Source: a phage. From it: a stretch of DNA of 64,000 nucleotides. The stretch lies in NCBI GenBank assembly GCA_012212665.1, contig GCA_012212665.1_4517.1, one strand, 5' to 3'. The position numbers and the translations under genes are program-made. The notes below the pieces were generated by a model, which searched no databases, was not told the DNA's origin, and saw only the letters and a list, made by a program, of their open reading frames with translations. This document shows, piece after piece, positions 8,925-63,464 of this stretch (the first letter of the stretch is position 1; the number at the start of each line of letters is the position of its first letter).

Positions 8925-9860
8925 TTATTCTGCAAATAATTCAGTAACGTCTGAAATTACTTCATAACGACAAGTACGCATCTTAGCATCACCGTAGTCA
9001 ACCGGGATGGATACAACATCGCGTGGATGAACTTTAACTTTCACAACTTTATCTGAGCTTGAACCAAAGTGGCGAATATAAGATTTAGCACAAACGTGGA
9101 GACCGCGAGAACAGGTTTGAGTATCATCGTCGTTAACTCGAGTACGAGGCATTGAAACAACTTTACCTGGGGAGTTATCAAATGTACCACTATAGCAGTC
9201 TAAATAGTCTTTACGAACTACTTTCCACGCATAGAAATACCCATCTTCAGTGATTTCAATATCGTTTGCAACCAAGAAGTCGAATAAACGTTGTACAGCT
9301 TTTTCGCTTGGGTTTTCTAACAGGTTTTCAAGGAACGGCAGATAGAATTTAAAGTCTTCGCCTTTTTCCATAGAATCAATAATACGATTAACCAGTCCTG
9401 AACGAATTTCTATACCTTGATAAAATAAACTACCACCTTCAATAGTAACATTACCGTCAACAAACTTAGTAATAGCTTTCTTGATGTTAATAAGTTCGAC
9501 AGCTTTACTAAGGTTTCCTGCGACCAGATTAGCTTTAATTTCTTCAAAATTTGCATGACTTGATGGGGTCGCATTGTATGCTACGCGTCCTTCAATGATT
9601 GAAATAAATTTAGATGATGCGTTCCATACGATTTCTGGACGATGTCCGCCGATAATAGGTTCATTATTTTCTTGGACTTGTTCTTCGTCTTCAAATTCAG
9701 CGGCTTTCTCTTCGGCTTTAAAATTCTTAACAATCTTACGAAGAGTGTCAGTGGAAATATTGAAGTAATCAGCAATTTCCCGACGGGTCCATTGGCCTGA
9801 TTTAACCAGATCGTAAGCTTCTAACTGTTCTTCTTGAGACAAGCATTTAATATTGTACAT
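8925..9860 (-). CDS. rIIB: rIIB membrane-associated protein
   Basis: 311 aa; N-terminus MYNIKCL and C-terminal block RTRVNDDDTQTCSRGLHVC.KSYIRHFGSS.D.VVKVKVHPRDVVSIP.DYGDAKMRTC.YEVISDV match T4 rIIB. Confidence 0.9.
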   Translation of the reverse strand: MYNIKCLSQEEQLEAYDLVKSGQWTRREIADYFNISTDTLRKIVKNFKAEEKAAEFEDEEQVQENNEPIIGGHRPEIVWNASSKFISIIEGRVAYNATPSSHANFEEIKANLVAGNLSKAVELINIKKAITKFVDGNVTIEGGSLFYQGIEIRSGLVNRIIDSMEKGEDFKFYLPFLENLLENPSEKAVQRLFDFLVANDIEITEDGYFYAWKVVRKDYLDCYSGTFDNSPGKVVSMPRTRVNDDDTQTCSRGLHVCAKSYIRHFGSSSDKVVKVKVHPRDVVSIPVDYGDAKMRTCRYEVISDVTELFAE

Positions 9861-9869
9861 AATGTTTCC

Positions 9870-12083
9870 TTATTTGGCTGCTTCCACAGCCTTCATGAAT
9901 TTAACGATTTGAGCGACTTGTTCTTTAGAAAGAGTACCACGTCGTCCCATGTAGTCTGACACAATATGATAATTGGTTTCGAATTCAATAACCATTTTAT
10001 CATCATTATCGTAAGCATTATCTTTAAGCTTATCGAAAATTTTAGCACACAATTCTAACTTTTTATTCAGTTCTCTGTTAGTAGCACCTGAGAATCGATT
10101 CCATCCCCAACGATTATTTACTGTTGAGAGTTTTGCAAAATCTTTACTGATTTCTTTGTTTTTAGAGCTAAAATACTTACTAAGGAAGTTAAGCTCTTCA
10201 TTACGAGTAATATGATTCAAATAAGGCTGTGCTCTACGACTTGGTGATACATACTCATCATAATCCACTTTATCGATTAGCGTAATATAGTCATTAATTG
10301 ATTTTTCGAACAAGCATTCTACTTCACCAAGTTTACGAACTTTCTTAGCAATCTGTGGACGAACTACAGTGAACTCTTTAATACCTGACAAATCAGCAAT
10401 ACGGGTCAAGAAATTGGAGTCATAGTTCAACCAACCTTTATCTGCGTCAAGACATTCAGCATTAGAACGATTACGAACTATAGCATAACCTTGGATTTCA
10501 TCTGCTTCACTTGCCGGAATAAAGAGGTCTTCTGATACCCAAACATCGTTTTCATTCTTAAAGAATCGATGAGCACTTGGCGATTTAGGACGAGGCTCAT
10601 TAGTCCGTTTCCTGACTTCAATCCATGGCTTAACGATTTGTAAAAGCTCTGAAGTCTTGTACATGTTAATGTTGTCGCCATCAAAGATAACTTTAAGGCG
10701 TTCCAGAAGTTTCATTGCATCTTCGTCTGTAGGGTCAACGAATAGTACACTTTTACCAAAACCGCGTGGAACTTTACCAGTTAATTTAACCTCGTCTTTA
10801 GACATTTCAATTGAATTAAGAGCTCGCATTAATGGAACGCGTCCCTTAACGTCGTCAATAACAATTTCAACGTTTTTAATGTTAATGCCAATCAAACTGT
10901 TAATTGAAATGGTTGTCGTTGAGCTACCACTTTCACGAATACGACGAAGACGAGGGGATTCAACGATATCGTATACGACGCCAAGATTACACCACTCAGG
11001 CCCCATTTTAAAACGTTTGTACAACTCAGAATAAGTTAGTTGTTCTTTAGAGTATTTCAGTGATTCAATATTGGACCCGGCCTTTTCCATGTATTTACGA
11101 GCGGTATAGCCAAGAGAATCAATTTCACGGAACACATGGCGTGGGTATTTACAATCAATCCATTTCTTAGAATCTTCAGCGAACAATTTAGCATCGATTT
11201 CTGCAACACGTTTATGGATATTTGCTACTGTACGTTTATCAAATGACAATGCTTCACGAGACGGGGCTACATCTAGTTCACCCATAGGGAATTTAATATA
11301 AGCTGTAGTGCATCGCGTCATCATCCATGTTTGTTCTTTAATAACACTTCCGATCGGATATACAATACCGCCATAAACAGCCATGATATTACCACGTTCA
11401 CCCCATGGAGCTTCCTTGGCCAAATATACATCGTCAAATTCCGGGAAGTATTTGATATCTTTAACACCACGAACTTCTGCAATATCACCTAGAGGACGCA
11501 TAACATATGCAATTTCGGATGCAAACTTTTCAAAATCTTCCGGGTTAACCGGTACGACTACTTCTACACCCGTACGGTCATCAGGACCCATCTTATCTAC
11601 AAAGGTCGGCTTAATTTGTGGACCCGTGTCATCTTGGTAGATTACGTAACCACGAACTTCACCATTGTGATAAGACGTAAGGTTAAACGTATCGGTATAT
11701 GCTAGCGGAGCTTTAGAGCCGAGTCCGAATCCACCGATGAAATCGTTACTCGATGTTTTAGTTGAAGCAAAATATGAGTTATAGATTCCTGGCTCTTCGT
11801 CATTACCTCTAATGGTGAAATCACTCATACCAGGACCAAAGTCTCGAACTACAAAACGTGGGTCTAAACGACCTGGAGCCTGAACAATAAACTTATCAGT
11901 GCAACCGTTAAGAATTTGTCCATCGATACAGTTTGTAATTAATTCACGTACACAAGCCAATTCTTTGTTTGTATAAAGGTCATTAGACAAAATCTTATAA
12001 ACTTTGCTATTGCCTTGAATAGTGAATGCTGTGCTCTTACCGCCTGAACCAATAATCGTTTCTTTAGCCGTTTCAATAATCAT
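9870..12083 (-). CDS. rIIA: rIIA protein
   Basis: 737 aa; N-terminal region (LYTNK...VRELITN, PGRLDPRFV.RDFGPGMSDF, NDFIGGFGLGSK, GPQIKPTFV..MGPDD) matches T4 rIIA. Confidence 0.9.
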   Translation of the reverse strand: MIIETAKETIIGSGGKSTAFTIQGNSKVYKILSNDLYTNKELACVRELITNCIDGQILNGCTDKFIVQAPGRLDPRFVVRDFGPGMSDFTIRGNDEEPGIYNSYFASTKTSSNDFIGGFGLGSKAPLAYTDTFNLTSYHNGEVRGYVIYQDDTGPQIKPTFVDKMGPDDRTGVEVVVPVNPEDFEKFASEIAYVMRPLGDIAEVRGVKDIKYFPEFDDVYLAKEAPWGERGNIMAVYGGIVYPIGSVIKEQTWMMTRCTTAYIKFPMGELDVAPSREALSFDKRTVANIHKRVAEIDAKLFAEDSKKWIDCKYPRHVFREIDSLGYTARKYMEKAGSNIESLKYSKEQLTYSELYKRFKMGPEWCNLGVVYDIVESPRLRRIRESGSSTTTISINSLIGINIKNVEIVIDDVKGRVPLMRALNSIEMSKDEVKLTGKVPRGFGKSVLFVDPTDEDAMKLLERLKVIFDGDNINMYKTSELLQIVKPWIEVRKRTNEPRPKSPSAHRFFKNENDVWVSEDLFIPASEADEIQGYAIVRNRSNAECLDADKGWLNYDSNFLTRIADLSGIKEFTVVRPQIAKKVRKLGEVECLFEKSINDYITLIDKVDYDEYVSPSRRAQPYLNHITRNEELNFLSKYFSSKNKEISKDFAKLSTVNNRWGWNRFSGATNRELNKKLELCAKIFDKLKDNAYDNDDKMVIEFETNYHIVSDYMGRRGTLSKEQVAQIVKFMKAVEAAK

Positions 12084-12095
12084 ATTTTTCTCTCA

Positions 12096-12296
12096 TCACA
12101 AGTTACGTTTAAAAATTTCTGCTACTTCAAGAAGTTCTTCTTTAGTAGCTGTATCGGTTTGTATTTTATATCGAATTTCTTTAAAGCGTTCTTTAAAGGA
12201 CTCTGCTGATTCGATATCAAAAAATCTTTGGATAAGCCGGAATTCCCGGAGCACTGCTTTATCAAAAAGTTCCAAGTCCACGTTATACGTTCTCAT
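12096..12296 (-). CDS. Hypothetical protein (rIIA.1 position)
   Basis: ORF of 66 aa immediately upstream of rIIA. Confidence 0.5.
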   Translation of the reverse strand: MRTYNVDLELFDKAVLREFRLIQRFFDIESAESFKERFKEIRYKIQTDTATKEELLEVAEIFKRNL

Positions 12297-12321
12297 AATA
12301 TTCTCTTCAGTAGATTCCTAG

Positions 12322-12372
12322 GGCACTATTACTAAAGACCATATAATCTATCATCTTATGTGTAATAGTGCC
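12322..12372 (-). other. 11-bp perfect inverted repeat (GGCACTATTAC / GTAATAGTGCC) with 29-nt loop
   Basis: Located between the glycosyltransferase stop and the rIIA.1 start; loop contains a TATAAT-like element. Confidence 0.5.
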
Positions 12373-12388
12373 TCAGGCGATTCAGGAT

Positions 12389-13489
12389 TTACGCTGTGAA
12401 GATTTTATCCCACATCGCAACAACTGCATCTCGGTTATACTTCTTCCATACGGCTTCAGCACGTTTAACTCGAGCTTCGTATGTGTCAGTGAATTCTAAT
12501 ACAGCTTTTGTGTAAAGCGCAACTACTTCTTTCTTAGGAGTAGAGGAATCAATTTCTACACGCACAGTATCTGGGTCATATTCGAATGTCGCGTGCGGAT
12601 AATCCTTAAAAACTAACTGAATCACAGGGACACCTTTAGAGATGGCTTCAATAGAACTATTCTCTACCGTACCCGTGTCAGGACACGTATTGATAAGTGC
12701 TTTAGCTGTTTTAAGACGTTCCATGATTTCACTGTGTGGAGCATCAATAATAACAGGATACTTAGCCGGTGGTGCCCATTTACTAGGACAGTATCCTGCA
12801 CCATTTTCGCCTAGTGCTTTAATCGCTTCAAGAGCAACATCAGTACGACGCATTTTAGTGTCATAACGTTGTGCACTAATAATCAGATCAGTCGCCGGAA
12901 GAACTTCAGGTTTCTCATTCAAACAAATAACCGGATAATCTTCGGCTTCAAACAACGGATTTGCTCGCCAATAATCATAATCAATTTTGTCAGTCAGACC
13001 TGAAGTCATATAACAATATTTGCGTTCAAATTCACGGAAGGCTTTAGTAGGAGCATAACTCTTACCACCGTTCTTATGAATTTGAATAGTCTGGTCCCAA
13101 ATTTGAACAATGCCACGAGATACCGGTTCAAATGGTGTTGCCATAAAATTCTTATGAACTTTAGAGAGACCTGCGTCTTTAATTGCCTGAACGGTTAGTT
13201 TGGTCGGTTCCATTGTAACAACGAAATCGTACTCATTAATGCCGGCTAGTTCAACAATCTTACGAGCCATAGTATAACTCATACCTAGACTGAATTTAGT
13301 CAGATGACCAACAGGATGATGATTAACCTTCCAATCACCAAATGTGTCATTATCAAAACCGATATAATCAATATCGGCACCGATAGAAACTAAATATTTC
13401 AACACATTTAAATGTACTGCTTCAAGACCACCTTGTACACGTTCAGGATTAAATGGGACTGCACGAGATGGGATAAACATAACTTTCAT
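12389..13489 (-). CDS. GT-B fold glycosyltransferase (GT4-like), candidate DNA sugar transferase
   Basis: 366 aa; C-terminal motif TGTVENSSIEAISKGVPVI resembles the E-x7-E / EAxxxGxPVI signature of GT4 glycosyltransferases; lies between rIIA and gene 39. Confidence 0.6.
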   Translation of the reverse strand: MKVMFIPSRAVPFNPERVQGGLEAVHLNVLKYLVSIGADIDYIGFDNDTFGDWKVNHHPVGHLTKFSLGMSYTMARKIVELAGINEYDFVVTMEPTKLTVQAIKDAGLSKVHKNFMATPFEPVSRGIVQIWDQTIQIHKNGGKSYAPTKAFREFERKYCYMTSGLTDKIDYDYWRANPLFEAEDYPVICLNEKPEVLPATDLIISAQRYDTKMRRTDVALEAIKALGENGAGYCPSKWAPPAKYPVIIDAPHSEIMERLKTAKALINTCPDTGTVENSSIEAISKGVPVIQLVFKDYPHATFEYDPDTVRVEIDSSTPKKEVVALYTKAVLEFTDTYEARVKRAEAVWKKYNRDAVVAMWDKIFTA

Positions 13490-13500
13490 AATTAAGCCTT

Positions 13501-13533
13501 ATTAAAATTAAAATGAAGCTCCTAAAGGAGCTT
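13501..13533 (-). terminator. Terminator-like hairpin downstream of gene 39
   Basis: Minus-strand hairpin AAGCUCC-UUUA-GGAGCUU overlapping the gene 39 stop, followed by a U-rich tract. Confidence 0.45.
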
Positions 13534-15349
13534 AGGACATCCATTCTTTACGAAGTTCTGAATCATCACCCAACAACATTTCAAAGAGTTCTTTCCAATT
13601 TTCAGGAAGTTTAACTACGTCGTACACAGGGTTCTGAATCATTTCACGATACTCTGACTTTTCAAGGGAGCCTAATCCCTTGATGTATCGAATACTATGC
13701 TTAGGCAGTGTATCTTTAACTTCTTCATACTCAGCTACAGTATAAAACCATTTTTGAGTTTTGCCAATTTGTGCAATAATTACAGGTGTTTTAACAAAGC
13801 GAATACGTCCTTGTTCAAACAATTCAGGCCAATTACTAAAGAAAGCAAGCAAAGCCGGATAGATACTTCCAAGACCGTCATGATCGGCATCGGTCATAAT
13901 TGCAATATTACGATAGTTCGTATTCTCTGCCTTTTCACCAAGAATAAGACCTGTGATAGCACAGATATCGAATAACTCTTTGTTCTTCATCATATCAGCA
14001 TATGACATACCCCAGCTATTCATCACCTTACCACGTAATGGGAATCCACCGTGTAGTTCACGGTCACGAACATCAATGAGATATCCAATTGCCGAATCAC
14101 CTTCTGTTAAGAACAATGTCGTATCTGCATCTTTACCACATTGGTTAGCTTTAATATGCTTATGAACCTTAGCTTTAGTTGCCTTTTTAGCTGCTTTAGT
14201 TTCTGCAGCCTTTTCTGCTGCCAATTTACGAGCTAATGCTGCTTCAACAATAGGCATAATCAAGGCTTCGTTTTTAAGAAGTGCCTGGGCAATTTTCTTA
14301 GCATCTAATTGGATATGATTACGAATATCACCATACGTTGACGTTAAACGTTCTTTAGTCTGAGAATCAAAACGCATGTTGCTCATGTCTCGAATAAACA
14401 TCAACATTGTGAGGCATTCTTTAACACGAGCTTTAGTGACTTCAATACCCTTATATTTCTTTTTAATACCTGGCAAAAGATGTTCGCAGATATCATCCAT
14501 TACACATTCAACATGATGACCACCATTTTTAGTATGGATGTTATTCACATAAGTTAAATGACGGAAGCCATCTGGTGATGTTGTGAATGCTATAGAGACT
14601 TTATCATTTTCTTGAATGATGTTATCTTCACCAAATTGTTTAGCAAATCGTTTAAAATTACCATCGACCTTTTTACCATTAAATGTGAACTTGATATCAG
14701 GATAAACGACTGCCAATGTTTGAAGTCGATCTAAAGTAATATCTAAATAAATTTGAGATAAATTATGCTCTTCAAATGAAGTGAAATCAGGAGTGAAGAT
14801 TACTTTAGTGCCTTTACCTTTAGATTTCTTAGAAGACCATGATTTGTTTTCCATTCCGTTTGAACAGTTAACAGTGATTTCATTTTCGCCATCTGACGTG
14901 ATGCCTGTAAACAACGTAGAGAAGATATTAGTTAAACTACTCCCGACGCCGTTCATACCACCAGTCTTGCGTTCAGAGTCATCACCAAAGTTACCACCGG
15001 CCTTTGGAATAGTCCAGGCTGCTACAGGCCCAGGAATTTGTTCACCTGTTTGGTCGGTAACTAAACCTTGAGGAATACCACGTCCGTTATCTTCCACCGA
15101 AACTTGATTATTTTTAATTTGCACATCAATTTTATTTGCAAACTTAAATGATGTACGAATAGCTTCATCAACCGAGTTGTCAATAATCTCATCGATTAAT
15201 TTAACCAGGCCAGGAACATATTCAACTTGTTGATATTTACCAAACAAAAACCGCTCGTGGGCTTCTTTAGCAGAAGAACCAATATACATACCACTACGTT
15301 TCTTAATATGTTCTACATCTGACAATACCTTAATTTCATTTTTAATCAT
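13532..15349 (-). CDS. 39: DNA topoisomerase II large subunit, single fused polypeptide equivalent to T4 gp39 plus gp60
   Basis: 605 aa continuous ORF with GyrB-like ATPase (GHKL) and TOPRIM regions; T4 encodes this as gene 39 (516 aa) plus split gene 60. Confidence 0.9.
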   Translation of the reverse strand: MIKNEIKVLSDVEHIKKRSGMYIGSSAKEAHERFLFGKYQQVEYVPGLVKLIDEIIDNSVDEAIRTSFKFANKIDVQIKNNQVSVEDNGRGIPQGLVTDQTGEQIPGPVAAWTIPKAGGNFGDDSERKTGGMNGVGSSLTNIFSTLFTGITSDGENEITVNCSNGMENKSWSSKKSKGKGTKVIFTPDFTSFEEHNLSQIYLDITLDRLQTLAVVYPDIKFTFNGKKVDGNFKRFAKQFGEDNIIQENDKVSIAFTTSPDGFRHLTYVNNIHTKNGGHHVECVMDDICEHLLPGIKKKYKGIEVTKARVKECLTMLMFIRDMSNMRFDSQTKERLTSTYGDIRNHIQLDAKKIAQALLKNEALIMPIVEAALARKLAAEKAAETKAAKKATKAKVHKHIKANQCGKDADTTLFLTEGDSAIGYLIDVRDRELHGGFPLRGKVMNSWGMSYADMMKNKELFDICAITGLILGEKAENTNYRNIAIMTDADHDGLGSIYPALLAFFSNWPELFEQGRIRFVKTPVIIAQIGKTQKWFYTVAEYEEVKDTLPKHSIRYIKGLGSLEKSEYREMIQNPVYDVVKLPENWKELFEMLLGDDSELRKEWMS

Positions 15350-15371: not shown

Positions 15372-15397
15372 ATTCTATCATCCGAAATCTAAAGCAA
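15372..15397 (-). promoter_or_regulatory. MotA-dependent middle promoter upstream of gene 39
   Basis: Minus strand TTGCTTTAG (MotA box) -12 nt- TAGAAT; same module as at 49498..49522. Confidence 0.6.
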
Positions 15398-17233: not shown

Positions 17234-17259
17234 ATTATTCTCCTCTAGTCGATAGATTT

Positions 17260-17288
17260 ATAGTATCAAAACTAGAGGAGAAGTAAAC
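17260..17288 (-). promoter_or_regulatory. Early promoter inside a Shine-Dalgarno-sequestering inverted repeat
   Basis: Minus strand GTTTAC-17 nt-TACTAT; 12-bp arms UUCUCCUCUAGU / ACUAGAGGAGAA flank the -10, and the 3' arm contains the Shine-Dalgarno of the downstream gene. Confidence 0.55.
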
Positions 17289-18207: not shown

Positions 18208-18236
18208 AATTTTCTCTCTTTGTTTAAGTTGAATTC

Positions 18237-18266
18237 ATTATACTCCATCCGTCCTTGGATGTACAA
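18237..18266 (-). promoter_or_regulatory. Early promoter (variant of the TTATACTCCAACCATCCTTGGTTGTAAAC family)
   Basis: Minus strand TTGTAC-18 nt-TATAAT upstream of the 17722..18207 gene. Confidence 0.45.
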
Positions 18267-18268
18267 CA

Positions 18269-18763: not shown

Positions 18764-18794
18764 AATGTTTTTCCTGTTTGGTTAAGATAGAAAG

Positions 18795-18824
18795 ATTATA
18801 CTCCAACCATCCTTGGTTGTAAAC
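18795..18824 (-). promoter_or_regulatory. Early promoter (conserved family block)
   Basis: Minus strand GTTTAC-18 nt-TATAAT; 30-bp block nearly identical to 60774..60803 and 61794..61822. Confidence 0.55.
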
Positions 18825-18829
18825 TGATT

Positions 18830-29637: not shown

Positions 29638-29951
29638 ATTTCCTCGCAAAATGCCCATTCAGCATGATAAACTGTAGCACCTTTAGTATCATTCATTTGA
29701 ACTACATCTACCGGAGAAATTACTCGATAGAGACGTGGTTCACCTCCATAAGAGCGTGCTGCTCGTCCTGCGTAAATCTTTGCTAAACCGATATCTTCAG
29801 TAAAGAATACACGATTCAAGTTTTTCTTACGTCCGGTTTCAGACAGAACTCCTGTTTCTTCAGGAGGACAAAGCATGTTTTCGATTTTAGCTGAACTACT
29901 TGAACCGTGATAAAAAATCTTAAATTCTGCTTTACAATCGATGGTTTTCAT
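29634..29951 (-). CDS. Hypothetical protein
   Basis: ORF of 105 aa with GGAGAA Shine-Dalgarno. Confidence 0.5.
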   Translation of the reverse strand: MKTIDCKAEFKIFYHGSSSSAKIENMLCPPEETGVLSETGRKKNLNRVFFTEDIGLAKIYAGRAARSYGGEPRLYRVISPVDVVQMNDTKGATVYHAEWAFCEEI

Positions 29952-29978
29952 TTTGTTCTCCAGTAGTTGATAGGTCTA

Positions 29979-30006
29979 TAATAACACAACTACTGGAGAA
30001 GTAAAC
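29979..30006 (-). promoter_or_regulatory. Early promoter inside a Shine-Dalgarno-sequestering inverted repeat
   Basis: Minus strand GTTTAC-17 nt-TATTAT; 12-bp arms CUCCAGUAGUUG / CAACUACUGGAG flank the -10 and the 3' arm carries the Shine-Dalgarno. Confidence 0.55.
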
Positions 30007-49497: not shown

Positions 49498-49522
49498 ATT
49501 CTATCATCCGTTTATAAAGCAA
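49498..49522 (-). promoter_or_regulatory. MotA-dependent middle promoter upstream of gene 47
   Basis: Minus strand TTGCTTTAT (MotA box) -11 nt- TAGAAT; GGATGATAGAAT identical to the gene 39 middle promoter. Confidence 0.6.
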
Positions 49523-52220: not shown

Positions 52221-52283
52221 GATATTTTCCTCATTTTAAGACGATAGGAAGATAATAACATGTCTTCCTATCGTTGTACATTA

Positions 52284-54455: not shown

Positions 54456-54926
54456 TTAATCATGTTTCCACACCCCATCGGTATTTGACCAAAGTCGCTG
54501 ATTATCTGATCCTCGCCACAACTTTTTGGTCGGAAGATTTTTCTCATACTTCCCATCAATAATAACATCAACATATTTAAGCATTTCTAGTTGTTTAATA
54601 TCTTCAAACTTATATCCTGTCCACAACCAAATGCTTTTATTGGGATAAAGATTTTTAATAGTTTGTACCACAGAGTGAATCACGTCTCTGTTATCAGGAT
54701 AAAGAGGGTCACCTCCAGTTATAGTTAATCCTTCTATATAATCATTATTCAAACATTCAATTAATTGTTCTAGTGTTTCACCAGTGAATGGAATACCATT
54801 TCTAGCATTCCATGTTGATTTATTATAACACCCTTCGCATTTATGCAAACAACCTGTAACGAAAAGAACGACCCTGCAACCAGGGCCATTCACAAAATCA
54901 CAAGGATAAAATCTATCATAATTCAT
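54456..54926 (-). CDS. nrdG: Anaerobic ribonucleotide reductase activating protein NrdG (radical SAM)
   Basis: 156 aa; N-terminal Cys cluster (CRVVLFVTGCLHKCEGC) typical of NrdG; T4 synteny. Confidence 0.9.
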   Translation of the reverse strand: MNYDRFYPCDFVNGPGCRVVLFVTGCLHKCEGCYNKSTWNARNGIPFTGETLEQLIECLNNDYIEGLTITGGDPLYPDNRDVIHSVVQTIKNLYPNKSIWLWTGYKFEDIKQLEMLKYVDVIIDGKYEKNLPTKKLWRGSDNQRLWSNTDGVWKHD

Positions 54927-56740
54927 TGGTGTTTAACCCTATGCATTATTTCTTTATTTTTACCGAGATTAAATCCGCGTTCGTTCGGATTTCCCAGATA
55001 GCCGCATGTTCTTCTTATTGTGTTCATCTTTTTAGGATCAGTTTCTCCACAAACTGAACAAACAAATCCATTTTCAGTAGGAGTCATTTCATGGGTACTT
55101 CCGCATGTAAAACATTTATCTACTGGCATATTAACACCAAAATAATCTAAATGCTGTGCAGCATAATCCCATACAGCCTCAAGTCCCTTTAAGTTATTTT
55201 TCATATCAGGAAGTTCAACATAAGAAATGTGACCACCCGTCGCAATGAAATGATATGGCGCTTCACGAGAAATTTTTTCAAACGGAGTGATATTTTCTTC
55301 TACTGAAACGTGGAAACTGTTAGTGTACCATCCTTTATCAGTAACATCCTTTACACTTCCATATTTTTCAGTATCGAGTTTACAGAAACGATAACACAAG
55401 TTTTCAGCAGGAGTAGAATACAAGCTAAAAGCAAATCCGGTTCTTTCTGTCCACTGTTTAAGACGGGCATTCATTTTAGTTAAAATTTCTTGTCCGATAT
55501 CACGACCAACAAGAATATTCAATTCGTGAATACCAATGTATCCTAAGGACACTGAACTTCTGCCGTTTTTAAATAACTCAATTATATCGTCATCGGGTTT
55601 AAGACGAACCCCGAATGCACCTTCTTGGTAAAGAATAGGAGCAACAGTCGCTTTAACTCCTTTTAAGGAACTAATTCTACACATCAATGCTTCAAAACAC
55701 AAATCCATTCGTTCATTGAACAATTCAACAAATTTCTGTTCGTTAAATTGTGTTCCAACATAAGAATCTAACGCAATTCGAGGAAGATTCAGCGTTACAA
55801 CACCAAGATTATTACGTCCATCAAGAATTTCATTACCAGTCGAATCTTTCCATACGCTCAAGAAACTACGGCAACCCATCGGAGAAACAGGAATAGATGA
55901 ACCAGTGATAGCTTTATTATTCTTAACTGAAATAATATCAGGATACATCCTTTTACTTGCACACTCTAGAGCAAGCTGCTTAATATCATAGTTCGGGTCG
56001 TCTTTATAAAGATTAACACCTTCTTCAACGAACATGACAAGCTTAGGAAAAATAGGAGTTATCCCATCACGGCCAAGACCTTTAATACGATTTTTCAGAA
56101 TTGCTTTCTGAATCATTCGCTCGGCCCAGTCAGTTCCCGTACCAAATGTAATCGTTACAAAAGGCGTTTGCCCGTTTGAACTAAAGAGAGTATTTACTTC
56201 ATATTCATAAGCTTGGAATGCATCATATACATCTTTTTCTGTTTTAGATTGAGCATAATTCAGTGCATCAGCGATTTGCCATTTTTCCGCGTCCTCGATA
56301 TGTTTTGCATAGGTGCGTTTAACATAAGGAGAAAGTACTTTATCTACATTCGCAAAAGTCGTTCCGCCGTATTGATGAGAAGCAACTTGCGCAGTAATTT
56401 GTGCCATAATTGCAGTAGCAACACCGATTGATTTAGGTGTTTCAATCTGCGCATTACCAAGCTTAAACCCGTTCTCAAGCATTCCTTTTAAATCTACTAA
56501 ACAGCAATTAGTAAACGGAAGAGCAGGAGAATAATCAATATCGTGGAAATGGATAATTCCGCTTTCATGCGCTTTCATAATAAAAGACGGGACCATATTT
56601 TTGGCAATGTGTTTAGACACAATACCAGCCATAAGGTCCCGTTGAGTTGGAAAAACACGAGAATCTTTATTAGCATTCTCGTTCAAAAGATCTTTATTAG
56701 TTTTACGAATTAATCCTTCAATTTCTTTTTCAATTTTCAT
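54923..56740 (-). CDS. nrdD: Anaerobic ribonucleoside-triphosphate reductase NrdD (intronless)
   Basis: 605 aa continuous ORF; C-terminal zinc ribbon (CFTCGSTH...CSVCG) and glycyl-radical motif RRTCGYLG. Confidence 0.92.
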   Translation of the reverse strand: MKIEKEIEGLIRKTNKDLLNENANKDSRVFPTQRDLMAGIVSKHIAKNMVPSFIMKAHESGIIHFHDIDYSPALPFTNCCLVDLKGMLENGFKLGNAQIETPKSIGVATAIMAQITAQVASHQYGGTTFANVDKVLSPYVKRTYAKHIEDAEKWQIADALNYAQSKTEKDVYDAFQAYEYEVNTLFSSNGQTPFVTITFGTGTDWAERMIQKAILKNRIKGLGRDGITPIFPKLVMFVEEGVNLYKDDPNYDIKQLALECASKRMYPDIISVKNNKAITGSSIPVSPMGCRSFLSVWKDSTGNEILDGRNNLGVVTLNLPRIALDSYVGTQFNEQKFVELFNERMDLCFEALMCRISSLKGVKATVAPILYQEGAFGVRLKPDDDIIELFKNGRSSVSLGYIGIHELNILVGRDIGQEILTKMNARLKQWTERTGFAFSLYSTPAENLCYRFCKLDTEKYGSVKDVTDKGWYTNSFHVSVEENITPFEKISREAPYHFIATGGHISYVELPDMKNNLKGLEAVWDYAAQHLDYFGVNMPVDKCFTCGSTHEMTPTENGFVCSVCGETDPKKMNTIRRTCGYLGNPNERGFNLGKNKEIMHRVKHQ

Positions 56741-60745: not shown

Positions 60746-60773
60746 AATATTTTCCTCTCGTTAAGATAGGTTC

Positions 60774-60803
60774 ATTATACTCCAACCATCCTTGGTTGTA
60801 AAC
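60774..60803 (-). promoter_or_regulatory. Early promoter (conserved family block)
   Basis: TTATACTCCAACCATCCTTGGTTGTAAAC on the forward strand, i.e. GTTTAC-18 nt-TATAAT on the minus strand; near-identical to 18795..18824. Confidence 0.55.
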
Positions 60804-60807
60804 TGAT

Positions 60808-61767: not shown

Positions 61768-61793
61768 TTTATATTCCTCATGTTGAAAAATTT

Positions 61794-61822
61794 ATTATAC
61801 TCCAACCATCCTTGGTTGTACA
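61794..61822 (-). promoter_or_regulatory. Early promoter (conserved family block, -35 variant TGTACA)
   Basis: TTATACTCCAACCATCCTTGGTTGTACA block upstream of the 60808..61767 gene. Confidence 0.5.
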
Positions 61823-62818: not shown

Positions 62819-62880
62819 AACTATTTCCTCAGATTGAATTGGAACTCAAAACCATTATAACCCGTCCTTGGGTAAAGCGT

Positions 62881-63435: not shown

Positions 63436-63464
63436 ATAATAACATAACCATAGACCTTGTAAAC
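63436..63464 (-). promoter_or_regulatory. Early promoter
   Basis: Minus strand GTTTAC-17 nt-TATTAT with the GGTCTATAATA block shared with 4971 and 29971. Confidence 0.5.

Follow-up and report, generated by a model that had tools for sequence, protein, structure and literature searches.

A very stable, genus-wide intercistronic stem-loop upstream of rIIA.1 in RB69-like phages

A very stable hairpin fills the 92-nt gap between the RB69ORF003c homologue and rIIA.1 in an RB69-like T-even phage, and it is real, found throughout the genus Mosigvirus, and of a familiar intercistronic kind. We infer that the RNA hairpin forms in vivo and that it has an effect on decay or processing; the reading that it impedes RNA decay, or provides a processing site, in a long mRNA has in our estimate a probability of about 0.45. 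The observations that support this reading are the rank of the hairpin for stability (2nd of 15,984 segments), its read-through position, a layout that recurs, its presence in 155 of 155 records, the lower count of changes at its paired positions, the closure of its mismatch in separate lineages, and a negative outcome for every alternative signal class that was tested.

The hairpin and its junction

The DNA analyzed here is a contig of 64,000 nucleotides (GCA_012212665.1_4517.1), referred to below as the window. It comes from a Mosigvirus, an RB69-like T-even phage; over the 1.1 kb surrounding the site, it is 95 to 100% identical to 155 records, all from Mosigvirus and including RB69, JS09, ATK47, and p000v. 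The flanking genes all lie on the minus strand: 60plus39, the fused topoisomerase II large subunit (13532 to 15349), and the RB69ORF003c homologue, of 366 amino acids (12389 to 13489), upstream of the hairpin, and rIIA.1 (12096 to 12296; Pfam T4_RIIA1), rIIA (9870 to 12083), and rIIB (8925 to 9860) downstream of it. Within rIIA.1 is a middle promoter for the rII genes, GCTT-N-TATAAA, which is annotated in SA79RD. RB69ORF003c was proposed as an arabinosyl-hmC transferase by Thomas et al. 2018 (PMC6024577), and BASEL-collection records carry the same annotation (putative hmC-arabinosyltransferase). Its homologues fall from at least 95% identity to about 43% in Acinetobacter phages, where the gene context is different; no homologue of intermediate identity was found among 5.8 billion proteins, nor were more distant relatives with the same junction. 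Acinetobacter phage Maestro (locus L019, 1501 to 3800) has two tandem ORF003c homologues of about 43% identity just downstream of a dCMP hydroxymethylase gene, with two small ORFs between, an arrangement that fits a role for ORF003c in glycosylation of hmC-containing DNA.

The preliminary description had placed an 11-bp perfect inverted repeat with 29-nt spacing upstream of rIIA.1 and rIIA, and this was confirmed: GGCACTATTAC (12322 to 12332) and GTAATAGTGCC (12362 to 12372) are exact reverse complements. The repeat extends outward to 16-nt arms (12317 to 12332 and 12362 to 12377) that are 88% complementary. In the minus-strand RNA, the 5' arm (12362 to 12377) reads CCUGA-GGCACUAUUAC and the 3' arm (12317 to 12332) reads GUAAUAGUGCC-CUAGG; the outer 4 pairs, one of them G.U, are separated from the perfect 11-nt core by a single A.C mismatch (12373 with 12321). 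The 29 nt between the arms (12333 to 12361) had been taken for a loop containing a forward TATAAT. The TATAAT is present (12342 to 12347, plus strand, antisense to the genes), but the loop is not an open one, as the minus-strand RNA forms an upper stem there, in which AAGAU (12357 to 12353) pairs with GUCUU (12339 to 12335) and AUA (12351 to 12349) with UAU (12343 to 12341) below a 5-nt apical loop, GAUUA (12348 to 12344). The whole comprises about 23 pairs in 61 nt, with 15 pairs (4 plus 11) in the lower stem, a 4/2-nt internal loop (ACAU and UA), and 8 pairs (5 plus 3) in the upper stem. Read from the stop codon of ORF003c, the RNA runs UAA-N11-CCUG-A-GGCACUAUUAC-ACAU-AAGAU-G-AUA-GAUUA and continues as UAU-G-GUCUU-UA-GUAAUAGUGCC-C-UAGG-N9-GAAGAG-N6-AUG. 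The stop codon stands 11 nt before the hairpin, and the Shine-Dalgarno (SD)-like GAAGAG of rIIA.1 (12308 to 12303) begins 9 nt past it, outside the helix.

The minus-strand RNA hairpin folds at about -28.5 to -29.5 kcal/mol, with a local z-score of -3.8. Among 15,984 minus-strand segments of 65 nt it ranks second, at -28.5 kcal/mol against a mean of -9.4 (standard deviation, 3.7), and it is the most stable intergenic hairpin in that scan. The most stable of all (56580 to 56644, minus strand, -29.4 kcal/mol) lies inside nrdD (54923 to 56740), about 100 to 160 nt into the coding sequence. Perfect 11-mer inverted repeats with spacers of 3 to 60 nt gave 11 matches at 6 loci in the whole window, about 6 times the mean of 1.84 matches in dinucleotide shuffles; since shuffles also yield such repeats, a single one is by itself unremarkable. 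Four of the six loci, however, exactly fill intergenic gaps, in a window of which only about 9% is noncoding, and it is this intergenic placement, together with the extreme stability of the fold, that puts the hairpin beyond chance.

The arm 11-mer has no other copy in the window at up to one mismatch, save one match in a coding region, and a repeated element or MITE was rejected because the arms are single copy. A GAATC direct repeat flanking the hairpin is too short to carry meaning. The single-copy arms bear also on the earlier suggestion of a protein-binding palindrome, that is, a DNA-level site for a dimeric protein, or else an extruded cruciform. The arms are equally complementary on both strands, and the region folds as single-stranded DNA at -11.6 kcal/mol (z = -3.8), as such a site would allow; the half-sites are 29 bp apart, however, unlike those of known operators, and 153 of the 155 records contain the element just once per genome (total, 157 places). 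Mainly because of the spacing of the half-sites, we regard a function at the DNA level as very improbable.

Transcription and processing signals

The window contains 16 intergenic early promoters of the form GTTTAC, 17 to 18 nt, (T)G-n-TAnnAT, about 4 nt, CCTATC, the last motif being common to all 16 (for example, at 63464, 30006, 28694, 8089, and 5007, minus strand). A model of the -10 and start block built from these 16 gave at best -5.9 in the target gap, on either strand, compared with 16 to 33 for the real promoters. The site has neither a GTTTAC -35 nor the CCTATC start-region motif of the T4-type early promoter pattern, no MotA box (TGCTTtA 11 to 13 nt upstream of TAnnnT) at up to one mismatch, and no late promoter TATAAATA on either strand of 12297 to 12388; a generic sigma-70 scan returned nothing at the site on either strand. 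The published lists of RB69 early and middle promoters have no entry at the equivalent position, 2448 to 2508, and the nearest entries are Pm:5538 and Pe:6863. On these results the proposal of a promoter in the loop failed. The plus-strand TATAAT has no -35, no TG, and no call in the promoter scan, and as a promoter it would point antisense into ORF003c. The further idea of a promoter occluded by secondary structure offers no mechanism for duplex DNA.

The sole extended -10-like string at the site is ATGATAGATT; on the minus strand, the loop holds GATGATAGATT (TG-n-TAGATT, read from 12355 to 12345). This element differs by one mismatch from GATGATAGAAT, which is the -10 block in two MotA-box promoters of the window (TGCTTTA-N11/12-TAGAAT, minus strand, at 15372 to 15396 and 49498 to 49521) that share the identical block GGATGATAGAAT; the first of these is the equivalent of the published RB69 Pm:5538. 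This likeness was found post hoc, and 11-mers of this type match 6 times in the window against 2.3 expected, which counts against giving it weight.

The likeness nevertheless belongs to an alternative that we consider unlikely, in which the hairpin is a weak or vestigial promoter cassette, a decayed member of a set of promoters whose -10 elements are bracketed by inverted repeats. It would then substitute for the early promoter found at this position in T4, and a -35-independent extended -10 (TGATAGATT) may fire weakly toward rIIA.1. Comparison with the T4 upstream region, as the preliminary description had proposed, showed no homologous hairpin there; T4 has an early promoter, GTTTAC-N18-TATAAT with TG, in a 54-nt gap directly 5' of rIIA.1, with only a 5-bp spacer repeat, whereas Mosigvirus has a 92-nt gap, no promoter, and a long hairpin at this position. 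In Klebsiella phage Roth68, a MotA-box promoter occupies the place, its -10 lying between the arms AGTGAT and ATCACT. Moreover, the other three intergenic perfect repeats of the window each bracket an early-promoter -10, and 10 of 15 early promoters have a spacer-to-ATG segment that folds with z < -2. The missing GTTTAC, MotA box, and CCTATC, the low model score, and the absence from the RB69 lists all speak against the cassette, as does a common G-to-A polymorphism inside the putative -10. Furthermore, the 5' arm is 11 nt from the -10, so no -35 is possible at 17 to 18 nt.

The bracketed promoters are of some interest in their own right. At 17238 to 17282 and 29951 to 30005 (minus strand), perfect inverted repeats of 12 to 14 bp span canonical early promoters; the spacer immediately following GTTTAC forms the 5' arm, the loop holds the -10, and the 3' arm includes the SD GGAG. 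The folds reach -20 to -21 kcal/mol, with z of -6 to -7. Read-through RNA at these two places would be predicted to hide the SD of the next gene, and the early promoters' own transcripts are unstructured, unlike the spacer-to-ATG read-through segment. At 52241 to 52274, a 12-bp perfect inverted repeat (ACGATAGGAAGA/TCTTCCTATCGT) surrounds an extended -10, TGTTATTAT, with a degenerate -35 (ATGTAC) and the SD outside the stem. In the 10 of 15 early promoters with z < -2, the spacer often pairs with the CCTATC start region rather than with the SD. A spacer motif, CCAAGGAYGG(TT)GG, recurs in several promoters (18208 to 18268, 18764 to 18829, 60746 to 60807, 61768 to 61822, and 62819 to 62880), forming a small hairpin between their -35 and -10 elements, and the T4 rIIA.1 promoter carries a related CCACAAGGATGTGG (T4 locus L010, 1446 to 1500).

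In T4 genes e, soc, 49, and I-TevI, hairpins sequester the translation initiation region and have an internal promoter (PMC3014915). The repeats at 17238 to 17282 and 29951 to 30005 are an early-promoter version of that design. The target hairpin resembles it as an inverted repeat with a -10-like element in the loop but differs in that its internal "promoter" fails the phage models and that the SD and AUG (12296 to 12294) of rIIA.1 lie outside the 12317 to 12377 helix in both minimum-energy and centroid folds, so that no SD-sequestering hairpin is present. It shares the anatomy of the bracketed promoters without the parts that recruit polymerase, save the extended -10-like string. That it is a member, possibly a decayed one, of a genome-wide RB69-like grammar, in which inverted repeats bracket promoter -10s, strikes us as rather improbable. 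If this grammar held, RNA read through from upstream would fold, hiding the SD or making a processing site, and locally started RNA would be unstructured, which at this site would set the amount of rII protein made from read-through versus local transcripts; the hairpin might also retroregulate the acquired arabinosyltransferase gene in an RNase III-dependent manner.

The preliminary description had judged the structure not to be a standard intrinsic terminator, and this was borne out: neither strand has a U-tract after the stem, which is followed by CCCUAGGAAUCUAC. Such terminators have a G+C-rich stem and a loop of 3 to 8 nt, with the U-tract coming immediately afterward. A terminator scan of 11500 to 13700 gave a single match, a short hairpin at 13516 to 13533 after gene 39; in this part of RB69 it is likewise the single terminator predicted by Nolan et al. 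2006, and TransTerm for RB69 has no entry at 2448 to 2508. A RegB-type processing site, raised in the same description, found no support, since GGAG, the RegB target that mostly occurs in SD sequences of early genes, is absent from both strands of 12252 to 12536 and the SD of rIIA.1 is GAAGAG. Lacking both a U-tract and GGAG, the hairpin belongs to neither class. In the whole window GGAG is rarer than chance (199 occurrences versus 246.6 +/- 14, every shuffle being at or above the observed count), a shortage that could reflect avoidance of RegB cleavage.

Other classes fared no better. Rfam returned only subthreshold miRNA and snoRNA noise, at 14 to 19 bits against gathering scores of 35 to 86. 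The promoter-early stem-loop (PeSL) cassettes of T4-type phages consist of a stem-loop just upstream of an intact early promoter, in a motif repeated around the genome, and degraded "half" PeSLs have been described too (Arbiol 2010, PMC2839356; Comeau 2014, PMC4122927). Like a PeSL, the target borders an inserted, lineage-specific gene within a variable region and presents a stem-loop, then an SD and an ATG; unlike a PeSL, it has no promoter downstream of the stem, and its arms are unique, so it does not belong to that class. A replication origin was set aside, the T4 oriA being near soc and not rIIA.1. A 15-codon ORF (ATGATAGAT...TACTGA) that starts in the loop and ends 8 nt short of the rIIA.1 ATG was dismissed as a chance occurrence because it has no SD, its start codon is within the upper stem, and the common G-to-A change is nonsynonymous in it.

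RNase III typically acts on RNA that is mostly paired over about two turns of helix, and the cut often falls at an internal loop. The hairpin has this shape, its roughly 23 stacked pairs in 61 nt matching known substrates, and on geometry alone RNase III would be a plausible enzyme. Cutting by the host enzyme in or near the internal loop might leave the ORF003c message with a protective hairpin, as happens at T7 R1.1, or might set off its decay, as happens at lambda sib. No Rfam match points to such a site, however, and a review of posttranscriptional control in T4 (PMC3014915) makes no mention of RNase III; overall we hold this reading to be quite improbable.

Variation across Mosigvirus and its relatives

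The preliminary description had asked for conservation in relatives, and this was found throughout one genus and not beyond it. All 155 public phage records with the junction, every one a Mosigvirus, contain the element, 111 of them with identical sequence across its 61 nt. The hairpin is at least 93% identical across these 155 records, 3 IMG/VR loci, and 4 metagenome contigs, the last of which added nothing new to the variants. No homologous hairpin lies upstream of rIIA.1 in T4, Dhakavirus, Karamvirus, Kagamiyamavirus, Gelderlandvirus, or a Klebsiella phage, and no related element turned up outside Mosigvirus.

Variation was examined in 13 distinct variants drawn from 21 phage and IMG/VR loci, the window, and the four metagenome contigs, a chosen and nonrandom sample. 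These showed 6 substitution events at 46 paired positions versus 7 at 15 unpaired positions (Fisher P = 0.011), a contrast that weakens to P = 0.20 once the two mismatch positions are set aside. The covariation pair count was not in excess over shuffles (437 of 500), as divergence is too low to give a signal, with 97% mean column identity. The A.C mismatch (equivalent to 12320 to 12321 and 12373 in the window) was closed independently in two lineages, by A to G in VIPECOMC06 and by an adjacent double change, CT to TC, in AV118 and AV114; either change makes the imperfect 16-nt arms fully complementary and raises the stability to about -34 kcal/mol, and the double change also turns the G.U into G-C, giving perfect 16-bp arms. 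ESCO47 retains one pair as G.U. RB69 (A.C), WFbE185, TH58/ECO111, and PNJ-6 each carry a change that breaks one pair, and these four lineages are evidently viable. Assigning the functional strand from wobble pairs was abandoned, since with one variant each way, ESCO47 favoring minus-strand RNA and RB69 plus-strand RNA, they are uninformative. By its sequence pattern, the mismatch closure looks like either templated quasi-palindrome correction or selection for pairing, and the variants as a whole fit weak selection for pairing and templated correction equally well.

This ambiguity leaves room for a neutral origin, in which the hairpin is a quasi-palindromic scar where the ORF003c cassette joined rIIA.1, kept through the youth of the genus and perfecting itself by templated (strand-switch) mutation. 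The element is confined to ORF003c/rIIA.1 junctions, and what lies between the topoisomerase gene and rIIA.1 varies, each genus having different inserts: mobA and the split gene 60 in T4, ORF003c in Mosigvirus, and one or two small ORFs in Dhakavirus, Karamvirus, Kagamiyamavirus, Gelderlandvirus, and a Klebsiella phage. The adjacent double change in AV118 and AV114 that perfects the arms is a classic signature of quasi-palindrome correction, and the hairpin is no better conserved than the flanking coding DNA. A mere scar is hard to square, however, with a stability that is extreme for this genome, with two coaxial stems, which is more than one repeat provides, with paired positions that change less than unpaired ones, and with the scarcity of intergenic space in T-even phages (about 9% here), which is usually functional. 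We find a purely neutral scar doubtful.

A stem-loop within a read-through message

In light of the promoter results, the hairpin is transcribed within a read-through message, there being no predicted promoter between gene 39 and rIIA.1. Its layout is not isolated. Five other T-even genera have a 5- to 9-bp hairpin without a U-tract right after the stop codon of the topoisomerase II gene, with an SD and then a conserved ORF of about 50 amino acids beyond it, and the order of stop codon, hairpin without U-tract, SD, and ATG is seen at other gaps of the window as well. Its recurrence in other genera makes this a common intercistronic layout in these phages, of which the target hairpin is an unusually long example.

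For a barrier to decay or a processing site, we propose the following course of events. RNA started at Pm:5538 or Pe:6863 would proceed along the minus strand as a polycistronic mRNA from topoisomerase gene 39 through ORF003c into rIIA.1, rIIA, and rIIB, and the hairpin would form within it. Acting posttranscriptionally, the hairpin would block 3'-to-5' exonucleases or serve as a processing site or an entry point for an endonuclease. The 39-ORF003c segment would thereby gain a defined, protected 3' end, and its stability would be uncoupled from that of the rII genes, which own the middle promoter inside rIIA.1. Several results weigh against this reading: covariation shows no excess, some lineages carry pair-breaking changes, and the paired-position contrast has P = 0.20 without the mismatch positions. 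The changes that perfect the repeat could have arisen by templated quasi-palindrome mutation without selection, and T4 and the other genera manage without the hairpin.

Intercistronic stem-loops that act as stabilizers or processing sites are well known, among them the REP hairpins of Escherichia coli malEFG and RNase III sites of T7 such as R1.1. Like these, the target hairpin is stable, lacks a U-tract, and sits within one transcript after a stop codon and ahead of the following ribosome-binding site, and its two-stem geometry with an internal loop is like that of R1.1. It is unlike them in being single copy and confined to one genus, with no sequence similarity and no Rfam match.

For phage gene expression studies the hairpin is a modest point that leaves the general picture unchanged, and the window's other repeats, those that bracket promoters, are probably the better lead. 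Should the hairpin prove functional, it would show how a horizontally acquired DNA modification gene was joined to the classic rII transcription unit, the gene concerned being for the ara-hmC transferase that isolates RB69 genetically from T4. At that junction, the early promoter that lies next to rIIA.1 in T4 would have been swapped for an RNA structure.
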